Virus record (IMG/VR): IMGVR_UViG_2609460344_000022
From: a virus
Taxonomy: Duplodnaviria > Heunggongvirae > Uroviricota > Caudoviricetes
DNA: 40,873 bases
Direction: 5' to 3' (one strand)
Shown: positions 3,491 through 24,172 of the stretch, piece by piece
Layout of the letters: each line of letters opens with the position of its first letter
How positions within the stretch are numbered: the stretch's first letter is position 1
Program-made: the position numbers and the translations under genes
The notes under the pieces: model-generated
Databases searched by the model: none
Told to the model about the DNA's origin: nothing
The model's input: only the letters and a program-made list of their open reading frames with translations

Positions 3491-5547
3491 GATTTATCAC
3501 CTCCGAAATTTTCAAGCCTGTTGGCAATCATGATGGCGATATCAGGGATTGCTGGCGCTGTGGCTATACATGCGGGGTTGGCGCACAAACCATAGACGGC
3601 TGCAATCACGAGCTGTCTTTTCCAGTCGAGAATTTCTGGTTCTGAATCAGCCTTATCGTCGGGCGCATTGTTGCCCTGAGCATTCCGGGCAACTGCCTCG
3701 AGTTCATGAGTTGTATCAGCGGAACTTTCCAGGACATCCGCTTGTGCTGAGTTCTCTTCAGCAGATGTGCCGTTTTCTCCAAAAATTTCAGCGTAAGTTT
3801 CATCTCCTATTACCGGACCGCAGTCAGGGCAGTTGCCCCCACCAGTCTGAGCACAGACGCGGCAGGATTTTTCCAGCTCCGGTTGTGCTACTGGCTCTGG
3901 TTGTTGCTCTGCTGGTCCGTTTTGTTGCGTATCCGGGCTGTTTTGTTCCGCTTCTGGCTCATTTTGTTCCACTTTGGATTGATTCTGGTCTTCAGTGTCG
4001 CGAGTCTGGATCCCCTTCACCCACTTCGGGTCGGTTGGGTCGCTGATACCTTCAACGAATTCTCCGCGAGAAGCCGCCAGTAATTTGTCGGCATCGACTG
4101 GATTTTTTGGGGGGATGTTTTCCCTGGCTTTATTGAGTTCCTCCCTCAGTTCCTGGTATTTCGTTTCTACAGATGAGACATTTTCCAGTGATTGCGTGTC
4201 CTCATTATGTTTAACTGGAATTTCTTCCACTGATTCAGGCGCTGCCTGTTCATTAGCCATTGTGTCCGATGTTTGTTGCTTTTCTTCATCGCCATGTTTT
4301 CCTTCTGCTGTTCCGCGCTGCGGCATCGGTGCTGATGAGCGACCGCAGGCAATTTCCACGATTTCCGGATCCGGGTTAGCGTGATCGGTTTCGGTCAACA
4401 CTTTGTTGAGATATTCAGTCACGCGTGCCGGGATGGCCTCAATGCCGATTGGTGCTTCTTTCACGGAAGCCACCACAATGGCGCGGGAATAATCCAGCCC
4501 ACCGGGCATGGCGATAAATTTGTCGCGAAAAACAGAAAAGGGCGGCTTATTCTCTGACACGATTTCTTCAACGCGTTTTGCGTGTGCTGGGTGCAGGTTA
4601 TAAATATCCACATCCATTGAACGGGCCAGAACGCCGGTGGCTACATCTCGTGCGAGTGATGTCTTATCATGTTTGAATCCTTCACCACGATCGGTAATAT
4701 TTCCGCCGCCAGCGTTAGCACCGGAAGGCGTACGGGTAATGCCTGAAACATAATTTCCGTTCTGCCATTCTTTTGTCAGCAGGCCCTGATCAAGGTAGTC
4801 AGTTTTCATCCAGGTGGAAATGAACTTGTCGAATTCAGCCGGGCTGATGCGATGATTTGCAGAGTGGGGGAATGCTTTCCCTACAGATTCAGCCAGGCGG
4901 CTAAGGTGATAATTCGTCAGCTTATCCAGCTCTGGATGTGAACGCACAGCAGTAAGCAGGCTCTGAAGGTAACTATCTTCTGTGTCCATCTCCAGACGGA
5001 TCACATTATTACGTTGTTCTGGTGTGGCGTGATGCCGGTATTTTCCATCTTTATCCTTGCTAAAGAAGAAGAGGTGAAGGAAACGATGGGTAAGACTGAG
5101 AGTGGCGACGGGAATTTCACAGTCAATACAGTCATCGTCGCTGTCTGTGGATTCGATTTTCTCCGCATTACCCGGAACAGCTCCGTCTGGGTCATCGTTG
5201 CCACCGTCAGCCGTTGTGGCATCTTCACCGTTGATGTTGTCATCGGAGGGTATAGCCATCATGGTGATGCCATCGTTACCGCCTTTTTCATAGCGATTAC
5301 AGAATTCGGTATCAAACACTCCTTCCGGTGGAAGGTCATTTACGACGGGCAAATGAACGCGAACAGGTTTTTTAAAGTCATCTTCATCGTAGCCCGCATC
5401 GTCAATCGCAACAGCACCACGAGAGATTGCAATGGATAATTTTTTCGCCTCAGCCCAGTAAAAACCGCCTTTAATGCCGAGGCGTTTTCTTACCTTGTCA
5501 TTTTTTGCTTCGTAATACAGTGGGTAAACTTGTTTATCAGTGCTCAT
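3487..5547 (-). CDS. Large acidic hypothetical protein (686 aa; start trimmed to ATG 5547 with GAGG SD)
   Basis: Long ORF overlapping gam start by 4 nt (ATGA); acidic low-complexity linkers, CxxC...CxxC zinc-ribbon-like motif ([17 protein letters not shown]); upstream part of track ORF (to 5835) overlaps the preceding gene and lacks an SD. Confidence 0.6.
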
Positions 5548-9097: not shown

Positions 9098-10144
9098 TTA
9101 GTTATCCTTTAATAACCTATACAGTTTTGTAGGGGTACATCCTGAGGATATTGTTAAGTTCGTAGCACGCCTTTTCCGCCCATCATCGTATAAACGAAAA
9201 CCAGTAGTAGACGAATTTTCTGCGTCAAAAACTATAGACAGTATAGCGTCCCCAGACTTTTTTTGCCATTCGCATGTGCCGTTAGTTGGTTTCGTCATCT
9301 GTAGACGCCAGTCAAGAACGCCATCACTTATAGCTGAGAGATCGTTTAGTACATCTAGTACTGATTGATATCTTTCATTTGGATCTACATGAATGCATTT
9401 GTTTACTATTGTTATCAATTTTTTATGTATATGGGGAGGATATTCTTTTAATGGATAGCAGCCATTAATTATCGACTCTCTGAGTTGTTCAATCGTGCTA
9501 AATGCAGATCTTTCTCTTTCAAAATTATCATGTCCAACACACATTCTATATATGGTTAATCCTGCCTGATATATGTCATATGTGAAATTATAATCATTTG
9601 TTGATAAAGAAAAATATTCCGGTGGCACATGAAAATGATATCCAAACTCAGGCGCAGCTCTCGATTCCTCATTGACTAACTGAGATAATCCAAAGTCAGA
9701 TAGCATGGCCTCATTTCTGTTTGATATCATGATGTTATTAGGTTTTATATCAAAATGCATAAGACCTTTTGAGTGTATATGATAAAGTCCACTTAAAAAT
9801 TGAATAGAATACCGTATTATCTCCCTGCTTGTAAGATTATTTTTTTTCATTAATTGGTTTAGCGAACCATTATGATAAAATGGCATGGCTATATAGATAT
9901 TGCTCTCACATTGAGCAGCATACTGAACTTGCACAATATTTGGATGTGCATGTTTATAGAGAAGCCTTGCTTCATTAAAGTAGTCGTCGTGGTTAGTGTT
10001 TTCTTTTTTTTCTATTTCTTTAATCACCAAGTCATGAGCTAGGTGTCTGTCATGAGCCAGATATACTTTTGAAAAACAACCCTGTTCTTCTAGATCACGA
10101 ATCCATTCGAATTCTACATCAGCTCTTTTGTATGGAGTTAGCAT
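9098..10144 (-). CDS. Eukaryotic-like Ser/Thr protein kinase (Stk-like)
   Basis: 348 aa; catalytic loop HFDIKPNN, DFG motif (SDFGLS), beta3 Lys (VIKEI); strongly AT-rich; located between cI and pL. Confidence 0.8.
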   Translation of the reverse strand: MLTPYKRADVEFEWIRDLEEQGCFSKVYLAHDRHLAHDLVIKEIEKKENTNHDDYFNEARLLYKHAHPNIVQVQYAAQCESNIYIAMPFYHNGSLNQLMKKNNLTSREIIRYSIQFLSGLYHIHSKGLMHFDIKPNNIMISNRNEAMLSDFGLSQLVNEESRAAPEFGYHFHVPPEYFSLSTNDYNFTYDIYQAGLTIYRMCVGHDNFERERSAFSTIEQLRESIINGCYPLKEYPPHIHKKLITIVNKCIHVDPNERYQSVLDVLNDLSAISDGVLDWRLQMTKPTNGTCEWQKKSGDAILSIVFDAENSSTTGFRLYDDGRKRRATNLTISSGCTPTKLYRLLKDN

Positions 10145-18050: not shown

Positions 18051-18368
18051 TCATGATATTACCTGGATTCCGTTTTTCTCTACGACTGAAAGAAGGCGAA
18101 GAGCGGCACCTCCCGGCCGTTTTACACCACGTTCCCAGTCTGATATCAGGTTTTTACTGACGTTGAGGTATCTGGCAAAAACAGGTTGAGACAGATGCTC
18201 TCGTTCGCGCAGTGCACGGATCCTTTCCGGAGACATTACCGGCGCTGGCTGGAGACAAGTTTCATCGAATTCTCGCATAGTCTGTTTCGTTACTGCGCCG
18301 ATATCATGAAGCGATTCCATCATTTCATGTACGGATGCAAGCGCATCACTGCGGTAATTTTTACTCAT
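18051..18368 (-). CDS. HTH (XRE-type) antitoxin, HigA/MqsA-like C-terminal HTH
   Basis: 105 aa; C-terminal 'REREHLSQPVFARYLNVSKNLISDWERGVKRPGGAALRLL' resembles the antitoxin HTH pattern; start ATG overlaps stop of upstream toxin remnant. Confidence 0.6.
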   Translation of the reverse strand: MSKNYRSDALASVHEMMESLHDIGAVTKQTMREFDETCLQPAPVMSPERIRALREREHLSQPVFARYLNVSKNLISDWERGVKRPGGAALRLLSVVEKNGIQVIS

Positions 18369-18730
18369 TGGGTACCTCCGTAAACTGACCCTGTAGAATC
18401 AGTTGTGCCAGTTGTTCATCTGTTAGATTGAGTACGTGAGGAGCCCCTTCCGAAATGCACTTTCCTCAGTAGCGGTTATATTTTCACGTTCATTTTTTGC
18501 GTATGCATATACGAAAAAGGCCCTTGTGCCGACGCGATAGAAAATGATTGTGCGATAACCGCCAGATTTGCCGCCACCGACTCGTGGCAGACGTTGCTTG
18601 ATAACGCCGTTACCCAGGTTTGCTGAGATAAGCCCGTTATCAGCCTGTTTAACAATTTCGCGCAGTGATTGGTCGGATATTTTGTTTTGCGTGCAAATCG
18701 CTCAAACCAGGCGTTTTTAAAAATGCGCAT
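18361..18730 (-). pseudogene. RelE/ParE-superfamily toxin disrupted by two frameshifts
   Basis: Frame 1: MRIFKNAWFERFARK; frame 2: ...SLREIVKQADNGLISANLGNGVIKQRLPRVGGGKSGGYRTIIFYRVGTRAFFVYAYAKNERENI...; frame 3: LNLTDEQLAQLILQGQFTEVPNE*; first shift at an A-rich tract (GCACGCAAAACAAAATAT). Confidence 0.6.
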
Positions 18731-18797
18731 TTTTTGTTCCGTTATTAATGTATAACACATAGTGTTACATTGCGTAGGGATCTGCAATGCCATCAGT

Positions 18798-18908
18798 TTG
18801 ACAACGTCGCGTGTTCGGGGCTATATTCCTCACGCGCCAGCAAAACCTGGCGTCGGGATTAGCACCCCGGATATCGAAACGGTGCATAACCGCGCTGGCG
18901 GTTTTTTT
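18798..18908 (+). ncRNA. Promoter + ~75-nt structured RNA + intrinsic terminator (copy 1)
   Basis: TTGACA-N18-TATATT (18798-18827); hairpins CGCCAG-CAAAAC-CTGGCG and AACCGC-GCTG-GCGGTT followed by TTTTTTT (18888-18908). Confidence 0.45.
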
Positions 18909-19072
18909 ATGCGCTAAGCACAGTCACATTCGCGATTTATGGCGGGCTGTGTGGGGGAGCCGAAAGGCTCGCCGGATGTTTCGACCGGTAGTGCTAACCC
19001 CGCACAGTTCGCCACCACGATGATTAGCACCTGACGGTGGCGAGGTAAAAATTATCGAAACGCGAGGTCATT

Positions 19073-19738
19073 ATGGCTGTTCAAATTTCTGTCGAAAACC
19101 TTTCCCCTGTTACCTATAACCAGATCCCCGTAATTACTACTGAACTGTTGGCTCACCTTTACGGAACAAAAATCAAAAACATTTCTGATAACTTTCTGAA
19201 CAACACGACGCGATTCATGCCCGGAAAGCATTACTTTAAAATTGAAAAAAACGAATTACGCGAGTTTAAGAACAGACCCGAAACAATCGGGTTAGTTGGT
19301 AAAAATGCCCGCTCCCTCATCCTCTGGACAGAACGCGGCGCAGCCCGTCACGCAAAAATGCTCGAAACCGATCGGGCGTGGGAGGTATTCGAAAAACTGG
19401 AAGACTGCTATTTCAGCCAGGGAAAAACAGCACCAACCGAACAGCAGCCGCAGATTCAGCCACAATTCACAGCCGAAGAAATCATCCTCCTTTGCTACAT
19501 GCAGCTCTGGATGGAAAAAGCCCAGGACATCAGCAAACACCTGTATCCCATTATGAAAGAGCTGAACTCCTCATACACGAACAAGCTGTATGACATTGCG
19601 TTTGAGACCATCTACATGGTGACGAAGAACAGAGACGCGCTACTGAGGGAGGTAACACGTCTCGACATGTCAAGTTCCGTTATCCAGCGGGCCATGCCAA
19701 TGCTGAAAAGCCTGCGGGCAAGACAATTTGAATTCTGA
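19073..19738 (+). CDS. ORF6N-domain antirepressor-like protein (paralog 1)
   Basis: 221 aa; N-terminus '[20 protein letters not shown]...[21 protein letters not shown]' shared with paralog at 20657 and typical of the ORF6N antirepressor N-terminal domain. Confidence 0.6.
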   Translation: MAVQISVENLSPVTYNQIPVITTELLAHLYGTKIKNISDNFLNNTTRFMPGKHYFKIEKNELREFKNRPETIGLVGKNARSLILWTERGAARHAKMLETDRAWEVFEKLEDCYFSQGKTAPTEQQPQIQPQFTAEEIILLCYMQLWMEKAQDISKHLYPIMKELNSSYTNKLYDIAFETIYMVTKNRDALLREVTRLDMSSSVIQRAMPMLKSLRARQFEF

Positions 19739-19792
19739 AACTAAAGGAGCTTCGGCTCCTTTTTTGTTGGGAAAATCCAGTGAGAGGGAATA

Positions 19793-20203
19793 ATGAACCA
19801 GACTATCTTCCTCCGAAGTAAGCAGCAGCAACAATTCGCCATTAACGCCATCCTTGCAACAACTCTCGATAAAGACAAACCCGTTACGATCCGCATCACC
19901 GATTACAAGCGGAATCTCGATCAAAATGCCAAATTTCACGCGATGGTCGCTGATATCTCCCGACAGGTTCAGTGGTGCGGCAGATGGCTAAAACCAGAAC
20001 AGTGGAAAGTTTTGTTAATCAGCGGTCATGCCGTGGCGACAAAACAGGAAGCTGATGTTTTGCCTGGTCTTGAAGGTGAATACGTCAATATCCGCGAAAG
20101 CAGTGCGCAGATGAGCGTGAAGCGTATGGCAAGCCTGATTGAGTACACAACTTCCTGGGCTGTGGAGCAGGGTGTCAGATTTACCGACAGGAGGTATGAA
20201 TGA
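19793..20203 (+). CDS. ninB: NinB (Orf-family recombination protein)
   Basis: 136 aa; resembles recalled lambda NinB (…RNLDQN.K…DISRQV.W.GRWL..E.WK…). Confidence 0.8.
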
Positions 20204-20382
20204 GACGACAGCGACGAAGCATTACCGATATAGTCTGTGAAAACTGCAATTACCTTCCAACGAAACGTTCCAGAAATAAACCCAGGCCAATCCCAAAAGA
20301 ATCTGACGTTAAAGCCTTCAATTACACGGCTCACCTGTGGGATATCCGGTGGCTAAGACATCGTGCGAGGAAAACAAGGTGA
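20200..20382 (+). CDS. ninE: NinE-like small protein
   Basis: 60 aa, [60 protein letters not shown]; matches my recollection of the NinE family; 4-nt overlap with ninB. Confidence 0.55.
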
Positions 20383-20497
20383 TTGACGTGATGATTTATT
20401 CGGGGCTATATTCCTCACGCGCCAGCAAAATCTGGCGTCGGGATTGGCGTCCTGGATAGAGACCGCGACAGATACACGCCGCGAGCGTGTTTTTTAT
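20383..20497 (+). ncRNA. Promoter + ~75-nt structured RNA + intrinsic terminator (copy 2)
   Basis: TTGACG-N18-TATATT (20383-20412); hairpin CGCCAG-CAAAAT-CTGGCG; terminator ACACGC-CGCGA-GCGTGT + TTTTTTATT (20474-20499). Confidence 0.45.
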
Positions 20498-20656
20498 TGT
20501 CGTATGCACGCGCACATCTGAATTATGGTGGGCTGTGTGGGGGCGGAGAGATCCGCGCCGGTCGGTTTCCCGGTTACGCCAACCCTGCACAGTTCACCAC
20601 CAGACGATTGGCGTCGTCGGTGGTGAGTTATTAAGAAACCACTCGAGGGCGTCATT

Positions 20657-21340
20657 ATGACAACTCAAATCTCTGTTGAAACACTCTCCACGATTACTTA
20701 CAAGCAGATCCCCGTTATCACTACCGAACTTTTGGCGCACCTTTACGGCACAGAAGCTATTCGTATTCGCCAGAATCACCACGAAAACAAAGGTCGTTTC
20801 ATTGAGGAAAAACACTTCTTCAAACTTGAAGGTGAAACTTTACGTGAGTTCAAGCACAGAGTAGCTTTTAACTACTCTGTGAAAATTGCCCGTAACGTTC
20901 GCTCCCTCATCCTCTGGACAGAACGAGGCGCAGCCCGTCACGCCAAAATGCTAGAAACCGATCAGGCGTGGGATGTGTTCGAAAAACTGGAAGACTGCTA
21001 TTTCAGCCAGTGCGAGAAAAATACTGGCAAACAAGAGAAGAAGCCCAACGGGCTTTCCGCAAAAGAAACAGACAGCCTTGTATGGCTGTGGGATTATGCC
21101 AACCGCTCACAGGCATTGTTCCGTGAGTTGTATCCCGCATTAAAACTGATTCAGTCTGGCTATTCCGGCATATGCCACGACTACGGCTATGAGTTCTCGT
21201 ATATCATCGGGAGGGCGAGGGGCGTTTTAATTAATCACACGCGGGATATAGATATTTATGAGCCTGACGGGCCGACGAACCTTCTGGCATGGGAAAGGCT
21301 TAAGAACAAAGAGTTGCCGCCTTCACTGCATCGCTACTGA
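20657..21340 (+). CDS. ORF6N-domain antirepressor-like protein (paralog 2)
   Basis: 227 aa; N-terminal ~120 aa highly similar to paralog 1, C-terminus divergent. Confidence 0.6.
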
Positions 21341-21408
21341 CAATTGACAACTTAACAAACCCAGCTTCGGCTGGGTTTTTTATTGCTGAATTTTCAATAT
21401 GAGAGGAC

Positions 21409-22137
21409 ATGACAATGAATGAGCTGATAAATAGCAGCATCATCAAAATGACCAGCATTGAAATCGCTGAGTTGGTGGGGAGTCGTCCAGATAACGTAAA
21501 AATATCAATAGAGCGCCTGGCTGAATCTGGAGTTATTCAACTTCCTGCATTGCAGGTTTTCGAAAAAATCAATAACTTAGGACTGCGCCGTAGTGTCGAG
21601 GCTTACGTCTTCGAAGGCGAACAAGGTAAGCGAGACAGCATTATTGTCGTCGCCCAATTGTCGCCGGAATTCACCGCTCGTCTTGTTGACCGTTGGCGAG
21701 AGCTTGAAGGGGCAACCGCGAAAATACCACAAACCTTTTCTGAGGCATTGCGCCTTGCGGCCGACCTTGAAGACCAGAAGGCTGAACTGGAGAAACAGCT
21801 TGCTCTCGCAGCACCTAAAGTTGAGTTTGCCGATCGAGTTGGCGAGGCCAGCGGAATTTTGATTGGAAACTTTGCAAAGGTTGTTGGTATTGGTCCAAAC
21901 AAACTGTTTGCGTGGATGCGCGATCACAAAATCCTTATTGCTTCAGGTTCCCGGCGCAATGTGCCAATGCAGGAATATATGGATCGCGGCTATTTCACAG
22001 TGAAAGAAACAGCGGTCAATACAAATCACGGAATACAGATCTCGTTCACCACAAAAATCACCGGGCGTGGTCAACAGTGGCTGACCAGAAAGCCGCTCGA
22101 TAACGGAATGCTGAAAGTAACAGGGGAGGCTGCTTAA
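21409..22137 (+). CDS. Rha-family regulator / antirepressor (KilA-C/ANT C-terminal domain)
   Basis: 242 aa; N-terminal 'MTSIEIAELVGSRPDNV' Rha-like HTH; C-terminal '...EFADRVG...KVVGIGPNKLFAWMRDHKIL' antirepressor-type domain. Confidence 0.65.
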   Translation: MTMNELINSSIIKMTSIEIAELVGSRPDNVKISIERLAESGVIQLPALQVFEKINNLGLRRSVEAYVFEGEQGKRDSIIVVAQLSPEFTARLVDRWRELEGATAKIPQTFSEALRLAADLEDQKAELEKQLALAAPKVEFADRVGEASGILIGNFAKVVGIGPNKLFAWMRDHKILIASGSRRNVPMQEYMDRGYFTVKETAVNTNHGIQISFTTKITGRGQQWLTRKPLDNGMLKVTGEAA

Positions 22138-22786: not shown

Positions 22787-22980
22787 TGAATGCTAAAATT
22801 CAAACGATACCTGAATTACTGATCTGCACCAGGGGAAATCAGACAGAAGTCGCCAGAATACTGAACTGCAATCGTGCTACAGTCAGAAAATACATTGATG
22901 ATAAAGATGCGAAAAAGCACGCCGTCGTCAATGGCGTCCTTATGGTTCATCGCGGATGGGGTAAAGATACTGATGCGTGA
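22783..22980 (+). CDS. ninH: NinH-like protein
   Basis: 65 aa; '[42 protein letters not shown]' resembles recalled lambda NinH. Confidence 0.7.
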
Positions 22981-23407
22981 TATCCGGCAGGTTCTTGAGC
23001 GCTGGGGGGCATGGGCGGTAAATAACTATGAGGATGTTACATGGTCGCCCATTGCTGCCGGATTTAAGGGACTGATCCCCGAAAAAGTAAAATCACGTCC
23101 ACAGTGCTGTGACGATGATGCGATGGTGATATGCGGGTGCATAGCCCGCCTTTACCGGAACAATCGCGATCTGCATGACTTGCTGGTTGATTACTACGTG
23201 TTGGGGGAGACGTTCATGGCGCTGGCACGGAAACATGGGTGCTCTGACACCTGTATAGGTAAACGCCTTCACAAAGCGGAGGGGATTGTTGAAGGCATGC
23301 TGATGATGCTGGGAGTGAGGCTTGAGATGGATCGGTATGTTGAGCGTGAATTGCCGGGAGGGAGAAGCTCTGTATTTTATCAGCGAAAAAATAGTTTACG
23401 ATCGTAA
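22973..23407 (+). CDS. Q: Late-gene antiterminator Q (phage 21/82 type)
   Basis: 144 aa from ATG 22973; '[49 protein letters not shown]' matches recalled Q82 family. Confidence 0.8.
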
Positions 23408-23690: not shown

Positions 23691-24172
23691 TCCGTTCAAC
23701 GGGAATGTTACATACCTCACAATTAAGTCAGTTGAATGTTGTCTGCCCGGATGAGAATTTGTTAGAAAAAACTGCATGGTGAATCCCCCTGAGCGGAGGG
23801 GCGACTGGTGACGGTATAATCTCTGATTATCAAAACGAGAATGACGCGGGTTTAGTGGCACCGGGCTGAACTCACCGGGAGGCACCCGGCACCATGCAAT
23901 GGCACATAGCGCCACTCTCCAGCCCCTCTCCGGAGGGGCTTTCTTATGGACAAAAAAGCCCGCGCTGGGAGACGCGGGCGGCAAGGAATGAACAATGAAA
24001 CGTGAAGTAATATTTCAGCTGGCGAATAATACCCCATAGTAATCACTCTGCGCAACTGCGCGACCTTTTTCGAATTGCGGGCTGTAGTCTCCCTTCTGCC
24101 ATTGTCCTGTAACTTCCGGACTTCAGCCCGCTCCTTATTTTACTCACAATATTATCCCGGCCGGGAGGATTC

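Follow-up and report, generated by a model that had tools for sequence, protein, structure and literature searches.

The immI regions of phages P1 and P7 encode an antisense RNA, C4, together with the target on which it acts. The C4 RNA of P1 is processed and represses at two short sites, a2 and b2, and the specificity of P1/P7 heteroimmunity is set by the a and b sites. The C4 RNA of immI is said to have been treated by Citron & Schuster in 1990, Biere et al. in 1992 and Hartmann et al. in 1995. The element considered here is a promoter that runs into a terminator and occurs twice, from positions 18798 and 20383, in a 40,873-nucleotide stretch of viral DNA (IMG/VR record IMGVR_UViG_2609460344_000022; the whole stretch is called the window). 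The window is a lambdoid prophage inserted beside sapC in Escherichia coli. Each copy of the element is probably the promoter and 5' leader of an antisense switch of the P1 immI type, in which a C4 RNA silences an antirepressor gene (ant).

The annotated immI region of P1 begins with the promoter P1c4/P51b (TTGACC, 17 nucleotides, TATAGT), which is followed by a hairpin with the loop GCAAAUUC, a second hairpin carrying the site a1 (TTGACAG) in its loop, the site b1 (GTTAGTG), and a further hairpin with UAUUUUUG behind it. Then come c4, a2 and b2, the last of which overlaps the Shine-Dalgarno sequence of icd and lies at -18 to -11 from the icd start. The window was scanned against Rfam at curated thresholds (gathering scores of 50 bits for isrK, 45 bits for C4 and 46.7 bits for c4-a1b1). 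In the scan of P1, C4 and c4-a1b1 were found and isrK remained below threshold, at 35.1 bits (E = 2.4e-5).

The second close relative is the IsrK locus (isrK-orf45-anrP) of the Salmonella prophage Gifsy-1. IsrK is an experimentally detected RNA of about 77 nucleotides, which ends at the homologous terminator (Hershko-Shalev et al. 2016, PMC4825925). Its promoter, PisrK, drives transcription (PMC4825925 Table 1A), and a fraction of the transcripts reads through into the antirepressor gene, anrP. A transcriptional anrP fusion gave 280 units with PisrK and 3 without the promoter, and translation stayed off at 4 units; IsrK supplied in trans raised anrP translation 139-fold (PMC4825925). STnc1160 accumulates as a stable processed species downstream of IsrK (PMC4825925), and both RNAs are highly transcribed in lysogens, in 17 of 17 environmental conditions. 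Hershko-Shalev et al. have likened IsrK to seqA of phage P4 (PMC4825925), and a 2025 review lists IsrK and c4 as separate systems. The scan of Gifsy-1 yields isrK, c4-a1b1 and C4 in the same order ahead of anrP, and STnc1160 coincides with the C4 match. With the Gifsy-1 transcript numbered from its 5' end, the base pairs G28-C162 and G31-C159, which are altered in the compensatory mutants G28A/C162U and G31A/C159U (PMC4825925), map exactly onto pairs between a1 (UUGGCGU, nucleotides 26-32) and its complement a' (ACGCCAA, nucleotides 158-164). These paired bases are conserved as a1:a'. 'IsrK' and the 'a1/b1 leader of C4' are two names for one object, and the published compensatory mutations of Gifsy-1 fall in the a1:a' pairing of a C4 system.

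In both copies in the window, isrK, c4-a1b1 and C4 give above-threshold Rfam matches in identical order and on the same strand. The promoter-terminator unit is the front third of a larger unit comprised of the promoter, the a1/b1 leader, the terminator, C4, a2/b2 and the antirepressor gene. This anatomy, the family membership and the three-way complementarity described below are direct observations of the present analysis. The features of the two modules are as follows.

18798-18827 (+): promoter of module 1; TTGACA (18798-18803), 18-nucleotide spacer, TATATT (18822-18827); 11 of 12 consensus matches
18834-18908 (+): IsrK-type short RNA (a1/b1 leader) of module 1; Rfam isrK 74.3 bits, c4-a1b1 47.4 bits
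18821-18873 (+): c4-a1b1 (RF03163) match, copy 1
18834-18853 (+): hairpin 1 of module 1; core CGCCAG-CAAAAC-CTGGCG at 18835-18852
18854-18869 (+): hairpin 2 of module 1; its loop holds a1 TTAGCAC, 18859-18865
18874-18880 (+): b1 of module 1, TCGAAAC
18888-18903 (+): terminator stem of module 1, with Ts to 18908
18935-19019 (+): C4 antisense RNA (RF01695) of module 1; Rfam C4 75.1 bits; mature form about 18941-19016 by analogy with P1
18978-18984 (+): b' of module 1, GTTTCGA, in the loop of the second C4 hairpin
18991-18997 (+): a' of module 1, GTGCTAA, in the 3' single-stranded joint of C4
19024-19030 (+): a2 of module 1, TTAGCAC, downstream target
19055-19061 (+): b2 of module 1, TCGAAAC, downstream target
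19064-19067 (+): Shine-Dalgarno sequence GAGG of module 1
19073-19738 (+): antirepressor gene 1; 221 amino acids, ORF6N + P22_AR_C (Pfam); 'ORF6N domain-containing protein' in RefSeq
20383-20412 (+): promoter of module 2; TTGACG, 18-nucleotide spacer, TATATT; 10 of 12 consensus matches
20419-20495 (+): IsrK-type short RNA of module 2; Rfam isrK 75.5 bits, c4-a1b1 50.5 bits
20406-20458 (+): c4-a1b1 (RF03163) match, copy 2
20419-20438 (+): hairpin 1 of module 2; core CGCCAG-CAAAAT-CTGGCG at 20420-20437
20444-20450 (+): a1 of module 2, TTGGCGT
20459-20464 (+): b1 of module 2, GAGACC; pairs with b' via one G-U
20474-20490 (+): terminator stem of module 2, with Ts to 20495
20521-20604 (+): C4 antisense RNA of module 2; Rfam C4 66.7 bits; mature form about 20527-20601 by analogy with P1
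20564-20569 (+): b' of module 2, GGTTTC
20576-20582 (+): a' of module 2, ACGCCAA
20608-20614 (+): a2 of module 2, TTGGCGT, downstream target
20635-20640 (+): b2 of module 2, GAAACC, downstream target
20645-20649 (+): Shine-Dalgarno sequence GAGGG of module 2
20657-21340 (+): antirepressor gene 2; 227 amino acids, ORF6N + P22_AR_C; 'phage antirepressor Ant' in RefSeq

An earlier note on this DNA had described near-consensus sigma-70 promoters in both copies, and these are present as listed. The 40.9-kb window contains the pattern TTGAC-N19-TATATT at these two places and no others, and 100 shuffles give an expectation of 0. The likely start lies 7 nucleotides after the -10 element, at G18834 and G20419, and the RNA lengths predicted from these starts are 75 and 77 nucleotides. 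The 5' hairpin named in the note is also confirmed, with the loop CAAAAC in copy 1 and CAAAAT in copy 2; in full it has 7 base pairs (GCGCCAG-CAAAAY-CTGGCGT) and starts seven bases past each -10 element. The hairpin and U-run which the note placed some 75 nucleotides on end at 18908 and 20495, and consist of a G+C-rich hairpin followed by 6-7 T. The terminator stems have 6 base pairs each and energies of -8.5 and -7.1 kcal/mol, and such weak stems fit leaky termination. The proposed stand-alone small RNA agrees with the full-length isrK (RF01394) matches in both copies (model positions 1-77 of 77) and with the detection of its homologue of about 77 nucleotides in Gifsy-1 (PMC4825925).

The two copies are nearly identical from the -10 element through the second hairpin, and their flanks are divergent. 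Modules were collected from IMG/VR with the exact 28-mer that extends from the -10 element through hairpin 1. At least 120 stretches were returned, which hold 121 modules, 50 of them distinct and 46 of these with the full layout. The -35 TTGAC is held at constant spacing in at least five unrelated upstream contexts. All three leader helices, including the terminator stem, show compensatory changes (98% of cells paired; 0 of 500 shuffles equal the observed value), and one pair of the terminator stem is seen as GC, CG, AU and UA. With the 28-mer in at least 120 IMG/VR stretches, a fixed TTGAC spacing and covarying helices, the promoter-to-terminator feature is not a product of chance.

Hairpin 1 keeps its loop, GCAAAAYC, from P1 through Gifsy-1 to E. 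coli, and the P1 stem differs by three compensatory pairs. This loop stands outside the a/b code (18834-18853 and 20419-20438 in the window; 531-550 and 34316-34297 in the relatives L123 and L124).

The C4 matches begin about 27 nucleotides past each terminator. Their long closing stem and 3' tail, GCCACC in copy 1 and ACCACC in copy 2, resemble the C4 RNA of P1; a tRNA-like acceptor stem with such a 3' ACC tail may allow RNase P to free C4 from its precursor. The ant start lies 57 nucleotides (module 1) or 56 nucleotides (module 2) past the predicted 3' end of C4, and b2 is located at -18 to -12 (module 1) or -22 to -17 (module 2) relative to the ATG, separated from the Shine-Dalgarno sequence by 2 and 4 nucleotides, respectively. 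The b2 site of P1 has the same geometry with respect to icd. An icd-like open reading frame between C4 and ant was found in neither window module. The two antirepressor genes share 48% identity, with a conserved N-terminal half and a diverged C-terminal half.

In Gifsy-1 the AUG at the C4 5' end serves as the start of orf45 (A107), and an AUG is present at this place in both window copies. The upstream open reading frame that starts there in the window spans 31 or 33 codons, and its stop lies 38 or 30 nucleotides ahead of ant; an AUGA overlap of this frame with ant was not found in either module. Across module types the upstream frame has 14-36 codons, lies in varying frames and ends 21-90 nucleotides before ant. 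An upstream frame that is coupled to ant, as orf45 is, was considered and is unsupported for the window, its length, frame and peptide being unconserved and its stop lying short of ant.

The sites in each C4 RNA match two pairs of targets, one in the leader and one ahead of ant. In module 1, a' (GTGCTAA) complements TTAGCAC twice, at a1 and a2, and b' (GTTTCGA) complements TCGAAAC twice, at b1 and b2. In module 2, a' (ACGCCAA) complements TTGGCGT twice, and b' (GGTTTC) pairs perfectly with GAAACC at b2 and, through one G-U, with GAGACC at b1. Target pairs with a followed by b occur on the plus strand of the window only in these four predicted places. Neither the a site nor the b site is shared by the two modules, and their longest Watson-Crick cross-match is at most 5 nucleotides; therefore, they should act independently of each other.

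The same relation holds throughout the collection. In all 46 full-layout IMG/VR modules, and also in Gifsy-1 and P1, a1 is identical to a2 and both are the exact complement of a' over 7-8 nucleotides; b' matches b1 and b2 over 6-9 nucleotides in the same set. In the 46 modules a' is formed by the single-stranded joint of C4 and b' by its second hairpin loop. The 46 comprise five a types and five or six b types, in ten combinations. Because other sequence separates the b sites from the a sites, the matched sets are not a matter of simple linkage. A one-base insertion in one a type (the TTAGGAAC type) appears at all three a positions. Each of 12 module types, Gifsy-1 and P1 included, matches its own C4, a result reached by none of 100,000 permutations. 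Between different types the a sites match over 5 nucleotides at best, versus 7-8 for the cognate sites. The b-site matrix is less clean, as short U-rich b loops give some foreign matches of 6-7 nucleotides when G-U pairs are counted. A second survey used a 26-mer on one genome per species and found 12 further loci, in E. coli, Shigella, Enterobacter, Lelliottia and Leminorella. New a and b types, again matched within each module, are found among them, in the last three genera. At least eight a types and about ten b types were seen in this analysis.

Complementarity was scored at the level of sites. Full-length RNAduplex energies of C4 with leader or target were tried and separated own partners (about -52 kcal/mol) from foreign ones (about -46 kcal/mol) only weakly; they were replaced because the conserved stems dominate them. 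Co-folding was set aside because pairing of a loop with a joint is pseudoknotted.

Several modules show peculiarities of their own. Wherever the b type is GAAACC, the leader copy is always GAGACC, with one G-U against b', and the copy ahead of ant is perfect; judged from the sequence, the leader b1 appears to be the consistently weaker partner of b' in this type. Four of the 50 distinct IMG/VR modules fall outside the pattern, two being interrupted at b1 and two having C4 but a non-ant sequence downstream. In the interrupted modules, M24 (L019, about 1308-1640) and M47 (L111, about 9420-9750), unrelated DNA starting TGAGGTGTACTGGCAATAGCGGACACTACC breaks the leader exactly at b1, and no C4 follows. 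This insert resembles the end of an IS3-family element. In M01 (L002) and M39 (L083) C4 is present and a different sequence replaces ant; in M39, a2 (TTGGAAC) also mismatches a' (GTGCTAA). These two look like recombinant or decayed modules. The viral contig L004 carries two modules (at 3943 and 7205) with the shared a type TTGGCGT and the b types TACGGAG and TCGAAAC, so that paired modules are not unique to this window. Seven Enterobacter relatives (L127-L130, L134, L136 and L137) keep hairpins 1 and 2, a1/b1, C4 and a2/b2, but their leader is followed by C4 with no intervening U-run terminator, and both the promoter region and the gene downstream are different. A short IsrK form is apparently missing from them. 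The switch therefore does not have the terminator as its core, and the short RNA form supplements the C4 system.

Work on Gifsy-1 has demonstrated an active promoter, the short RNA, the a1:a' pairing, read-through and activation in trans, and work on P1 the processing of C4 and repression at a2/b2. On this basis the switch in the window most likely works as follows. The constitutive sigma-70 promoter would fire in the lysogen, and most transcripts would stop at the short and rather weak terminator, giving an IsrK-type RNA of about 75 nucleotides that carries a1 in the loop of hairpin 2 and also b1. A fraction would read through into the tRNA-like C4 RNA of about 76 nucleotides, to be freed by processing, and then into the ant mRNA. 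The a' and b' sites of C4 would pair with a2 and b2, the latter 12-22 nucleotides upstream of the ant start codon and near the Shine-Dalgarno sequence, and this pairing would block translation of ant and keep the prophage repressor safe. The short leader RNA would pair with C4 in trans as well as inside the read-through transcript, and the balance of short RNA and C4 would decide whether Ant is made. Each C4 and each short RNA would act on its own antirepressor gene only, as both a and b differ.

A number of observations weigh against this scheme. All of the expression behaviour of the window modules, and the decoy role of the short RNA, we infer by analogy. The loss of a decoy should lower basal translation, and the cis a1 mutants G28A and G31A of Gifsy-1 instead raise basal anrP translation (93 and 218 vs 4; PMC4825925), which misfits a pure decoy. 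Constitutive expression of the orf45/STnc1160 region strengthened IsrK toxicity (PMC4825925). In P1, icd is located between C4 and ant, whereas the window has no icd, and the P1 annotation labels a1/b1 only 'putative' targets. Finally, Hershko-Shalev et al. explain Gifsy-1 by a switch of the read-through mRNA between two folds, with coupling via the 45-codon upstream frame (PMC4825925). Their model is an alternative reading of the same pairings, and the 45-codon frame is unconserved in the window.

According to that model, a1/b1 pair in cis with the C4/upstream-frame region and lock the read-through mRNA in a silent fold; the short RNA competes in trans and opens the ribosome-binding site of the upstream frame, and ant is translated by coupling. 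Taken as a whole, this is an unlikely account of the window modules. It is founded on direct genetics and native gels in Gifsy-1, in which G28A and G31A act in cis and mutations of the orf45 start or stop codon cut activation from 114-fold to 8-23-fold (PMC4825925). The AUG at the C4 5' end of both window copies suits it, and GGTGGCG or GGTGGTG just past a2 offers a second pairing partner to the 3' strand of the C4 closing stem; the change from GCCACC/GGTGGC in copy 1 to ACCACC/GGTGGT in copy 2 makes such alternative folds possible. However, the upstream frames are not conserved and in the window stop well before ant, the covariation of a2/b2 with a'/b' in every module is left unexplained by a lock in cis, and the supposed locking region is a full-length, above-threshold C4 RNA that accumulates as the stable processed STnc1160. 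The Gifsy-1 double mutants, moreover, stay unsilenced (224 and 327 vs 4 in the wild type; PMC4825925), the result that would follow if a' also had to pair with a2, which these mutants leave unchanged.

The earlier note had proposed, besides a small RNA, an attenuator ahead of an ORF6N gene that needs antitermination, with N or Q as the factors to be considered. The attenuator agrees with the layout, and read-through is seen in Gifsy-1, but the C4 RNA and the matched target sites had been missed. The need for N or Q is unsupported, as uninduced Gifsy-1 reads through from its own promoter and control there works through RNA-RNA pairing and translation. It is most improbable that the modules are simply attenuators overridden by N- or Q-modified polymerase, with the ORF6N genes expressed only in the lytic cycle and the short RNA a by-product. 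Both modules do belong to the rightward early operon, where the replication genes flank them on one side and Q on the other, and N-modified polymerase from PR is expected from established lambda biology to ignore and pass both terminators. The resemblance that the note saw to the Q-dependent late leader (STnc100, 23746-23951) is real in that both have a promoter and then a terminator, and goes no further. Yet each module has a strong promoter of its own immediately upstream, and a polymerase that starts there would have passed no nut or qut site, elements for which no aimed search was made. In Gifsy-1, PisrK alone suffices for read-through and the block is translational (280 vs 3 units, and 4 units; PMC4825925). 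The conserved, covarying C4 and a/b sites would have no role, and the Enterobacter relatives keep a1/b1, C4 and a2/b2 without any U-run terminator. Very little probability is likewise given to the short RNA being chiefly an Hfq-dependent, trans-acting small RNA directed at host core-genome mRNAs, its position before ant being incidental. The Rfam label 'isrK Hfq binding RNA', the prophage small RNAs of enterohaemorrhagic E. coli (EHEC) known to act on host targets (PMC4104026), and the hairpin 1 loop, kept from P1 to E. coli above a covarying stem, all speak for such a function. Yet the variable parts of the RNA are exactly those that track the C4 of the same module, as expected for a partner within the module; a host target would not lead one to expect this. 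IsrK has no known host target, and the published toxicity cascade runs through AnrP and AntQ (PMC4825925).

Within the nin region, module 1 precedes ninB and module 2 follows ninE. The immunity and late regulatory genes of the prophage are listed below, the positions of the first two being derived from the RefSeq annotation by offset (locus = window + 301).

~11111-11824 (-): repressor CI, LexA-family
~11925: cro
22874-23407: Q

Nine complete genomes, that of E. coli ML35 among them, are 100% identical to the window over 18700-21400; the same identity holds for E. coli FORC_069. RefSeq NZ_CP025747 (ML35) has no RNA feature annotated at either module, and the ML35 locus tags jump from RS11755 to RS11765 exactly at module 2. 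A third gene of the antirepressor type (21409-22137), with a weak Rha N-terminal match and a KilAC 'ANT' C-terminal domain, directly follows ant2 and a terminator-like hairpin (21357-21378), without an IsrK/C4 module of its own. The full-length STnc100 match scores 165 bits in Rfam, lies about 340 nucleotides downstream of Q and is the late-promoter leader RNA. Upstream of module 1 a Doc/Fic toxin gene (17506-18000, plus strand) is followed by a terminator-like hairpin (18015-18036) and by a RelE/ParE-like toxin gene with a helix-turn-helix partner (about 18050-18698, minus strand), which PR transcripts would cross in antisense. These two units form toxin-antitoxin-like cassettes inside the early operon. 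A hok/sok type I toxin-antitoxin locus occupies 16783-17106 (sok match at 16783-16957, 110 bits), with hokD of RefSeq just after it.

Each module of this common E. coli prophage is thereby assigned two regulatory RNA genes that had not been annotated, and the two antirepressor genes are predicted to be controlled by RNA separately, each through its own sequence address. Separate control of this kind bears on SOS-independent prophage induction and on prophage cross-talk in polylysogens, those Shiga-toxin phages that carry the same module included. A bolder idea, put forward tentatively and with the balance leaning against it, is that the a and b sites constitute a combinatorial RNA address code common to enterobacterial prophages, in which the short RNAs are diffusible keys and the C4 RNAs are locks. 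Were this so, a prophage or an incoming phage could switch on or silence an antirepressor of the same code in another resident prophage, and a prophage with two differently coded modules and a third antirepressor could respond to, or trigger, two partners. C4 binding to nascent a1/b1 might also tune termination, as in P4, and create feedback.

Among the closest described systems is immI of P1/P7 (RF01695 and RF03163, clan CL00128), with which the window modules share the order and orientation of parts and the production of antisense RNA and target from one promoter. The agreement extends to a in the loop of hairpin 2 followed by b, to a' and b' in the joint and loop of C4, to b2 at a ribosome-binding site, and to a specificity that a/b are predicted to set, as they do in P1/P7. 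The differences lie around this core. In P1, ant is repressed indirectly, via translation of icd and polarity, whereas b2 of the window abuts the Shine-Dalgarno sequence of ant itself. The P1 antirepressor protein is unrelated to those of the window, its leader hairpin and U-run are weaker (the loop has 12 nucleotides and a simple terminator scan misses it), and its promoter carries a C1 operator. The immunity system of phage P4 (CI RNA, seqA and seqC; same Rfam clan as C4) likewise has an antisense RNA that is tRNA-like, processed and encoded in the leader of its own target operon, with complementary sites both upstream and downstream of that RNA. There, however, pairing causes premature termination of transcription instead of a block of translation, and the controlled genes are replication genes. 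AgvB and AsxR, anti-small-RNAs of EHEC prophages, are also short prophage RNAs proposed to neutralise another regulatory RNA by pairing (PMC4104026). Their targets are the host RNAs GcvB and FnrS and they are encoded near the late-promoter moron site, whereas the partner in the window is the module's own C4. Tree et al. 2014 (PMC4104026) make no mention of IsrK, C4 or antirepressors and give no E. coli O157 name for the short RNA.

Gifsy-1 and the window have in common the promoter form TTGACA-18 nucleotides-TATATT, hairpins 1 and 2, and C4 followed by an antirepressor of the ORF6N type. The a type of Gifsy-1 (TTGGCGT/ACGCCAA) is that of module 2, with which the terminator stem is identical too, and its b type (ATCACC/GGTGAT) differs from both window copies. 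Gifsy-1 has one module, downstream of Q, and the 45-codon orf45 ends there with an AUGA overlap on anrP; the window has two modules in tandem, with different codes, and upstream frames that stop 38 and 30 nucleotides short. The element belongs to known families with experimental precedents, and no new kind of mechanism is involved. What is specific to the window is the tandem arrangement of two differently coded modules, the placement of b2 directly at the ribosome-binding site of ant without icd or a coupled upstream frame, and the position in the nin region.

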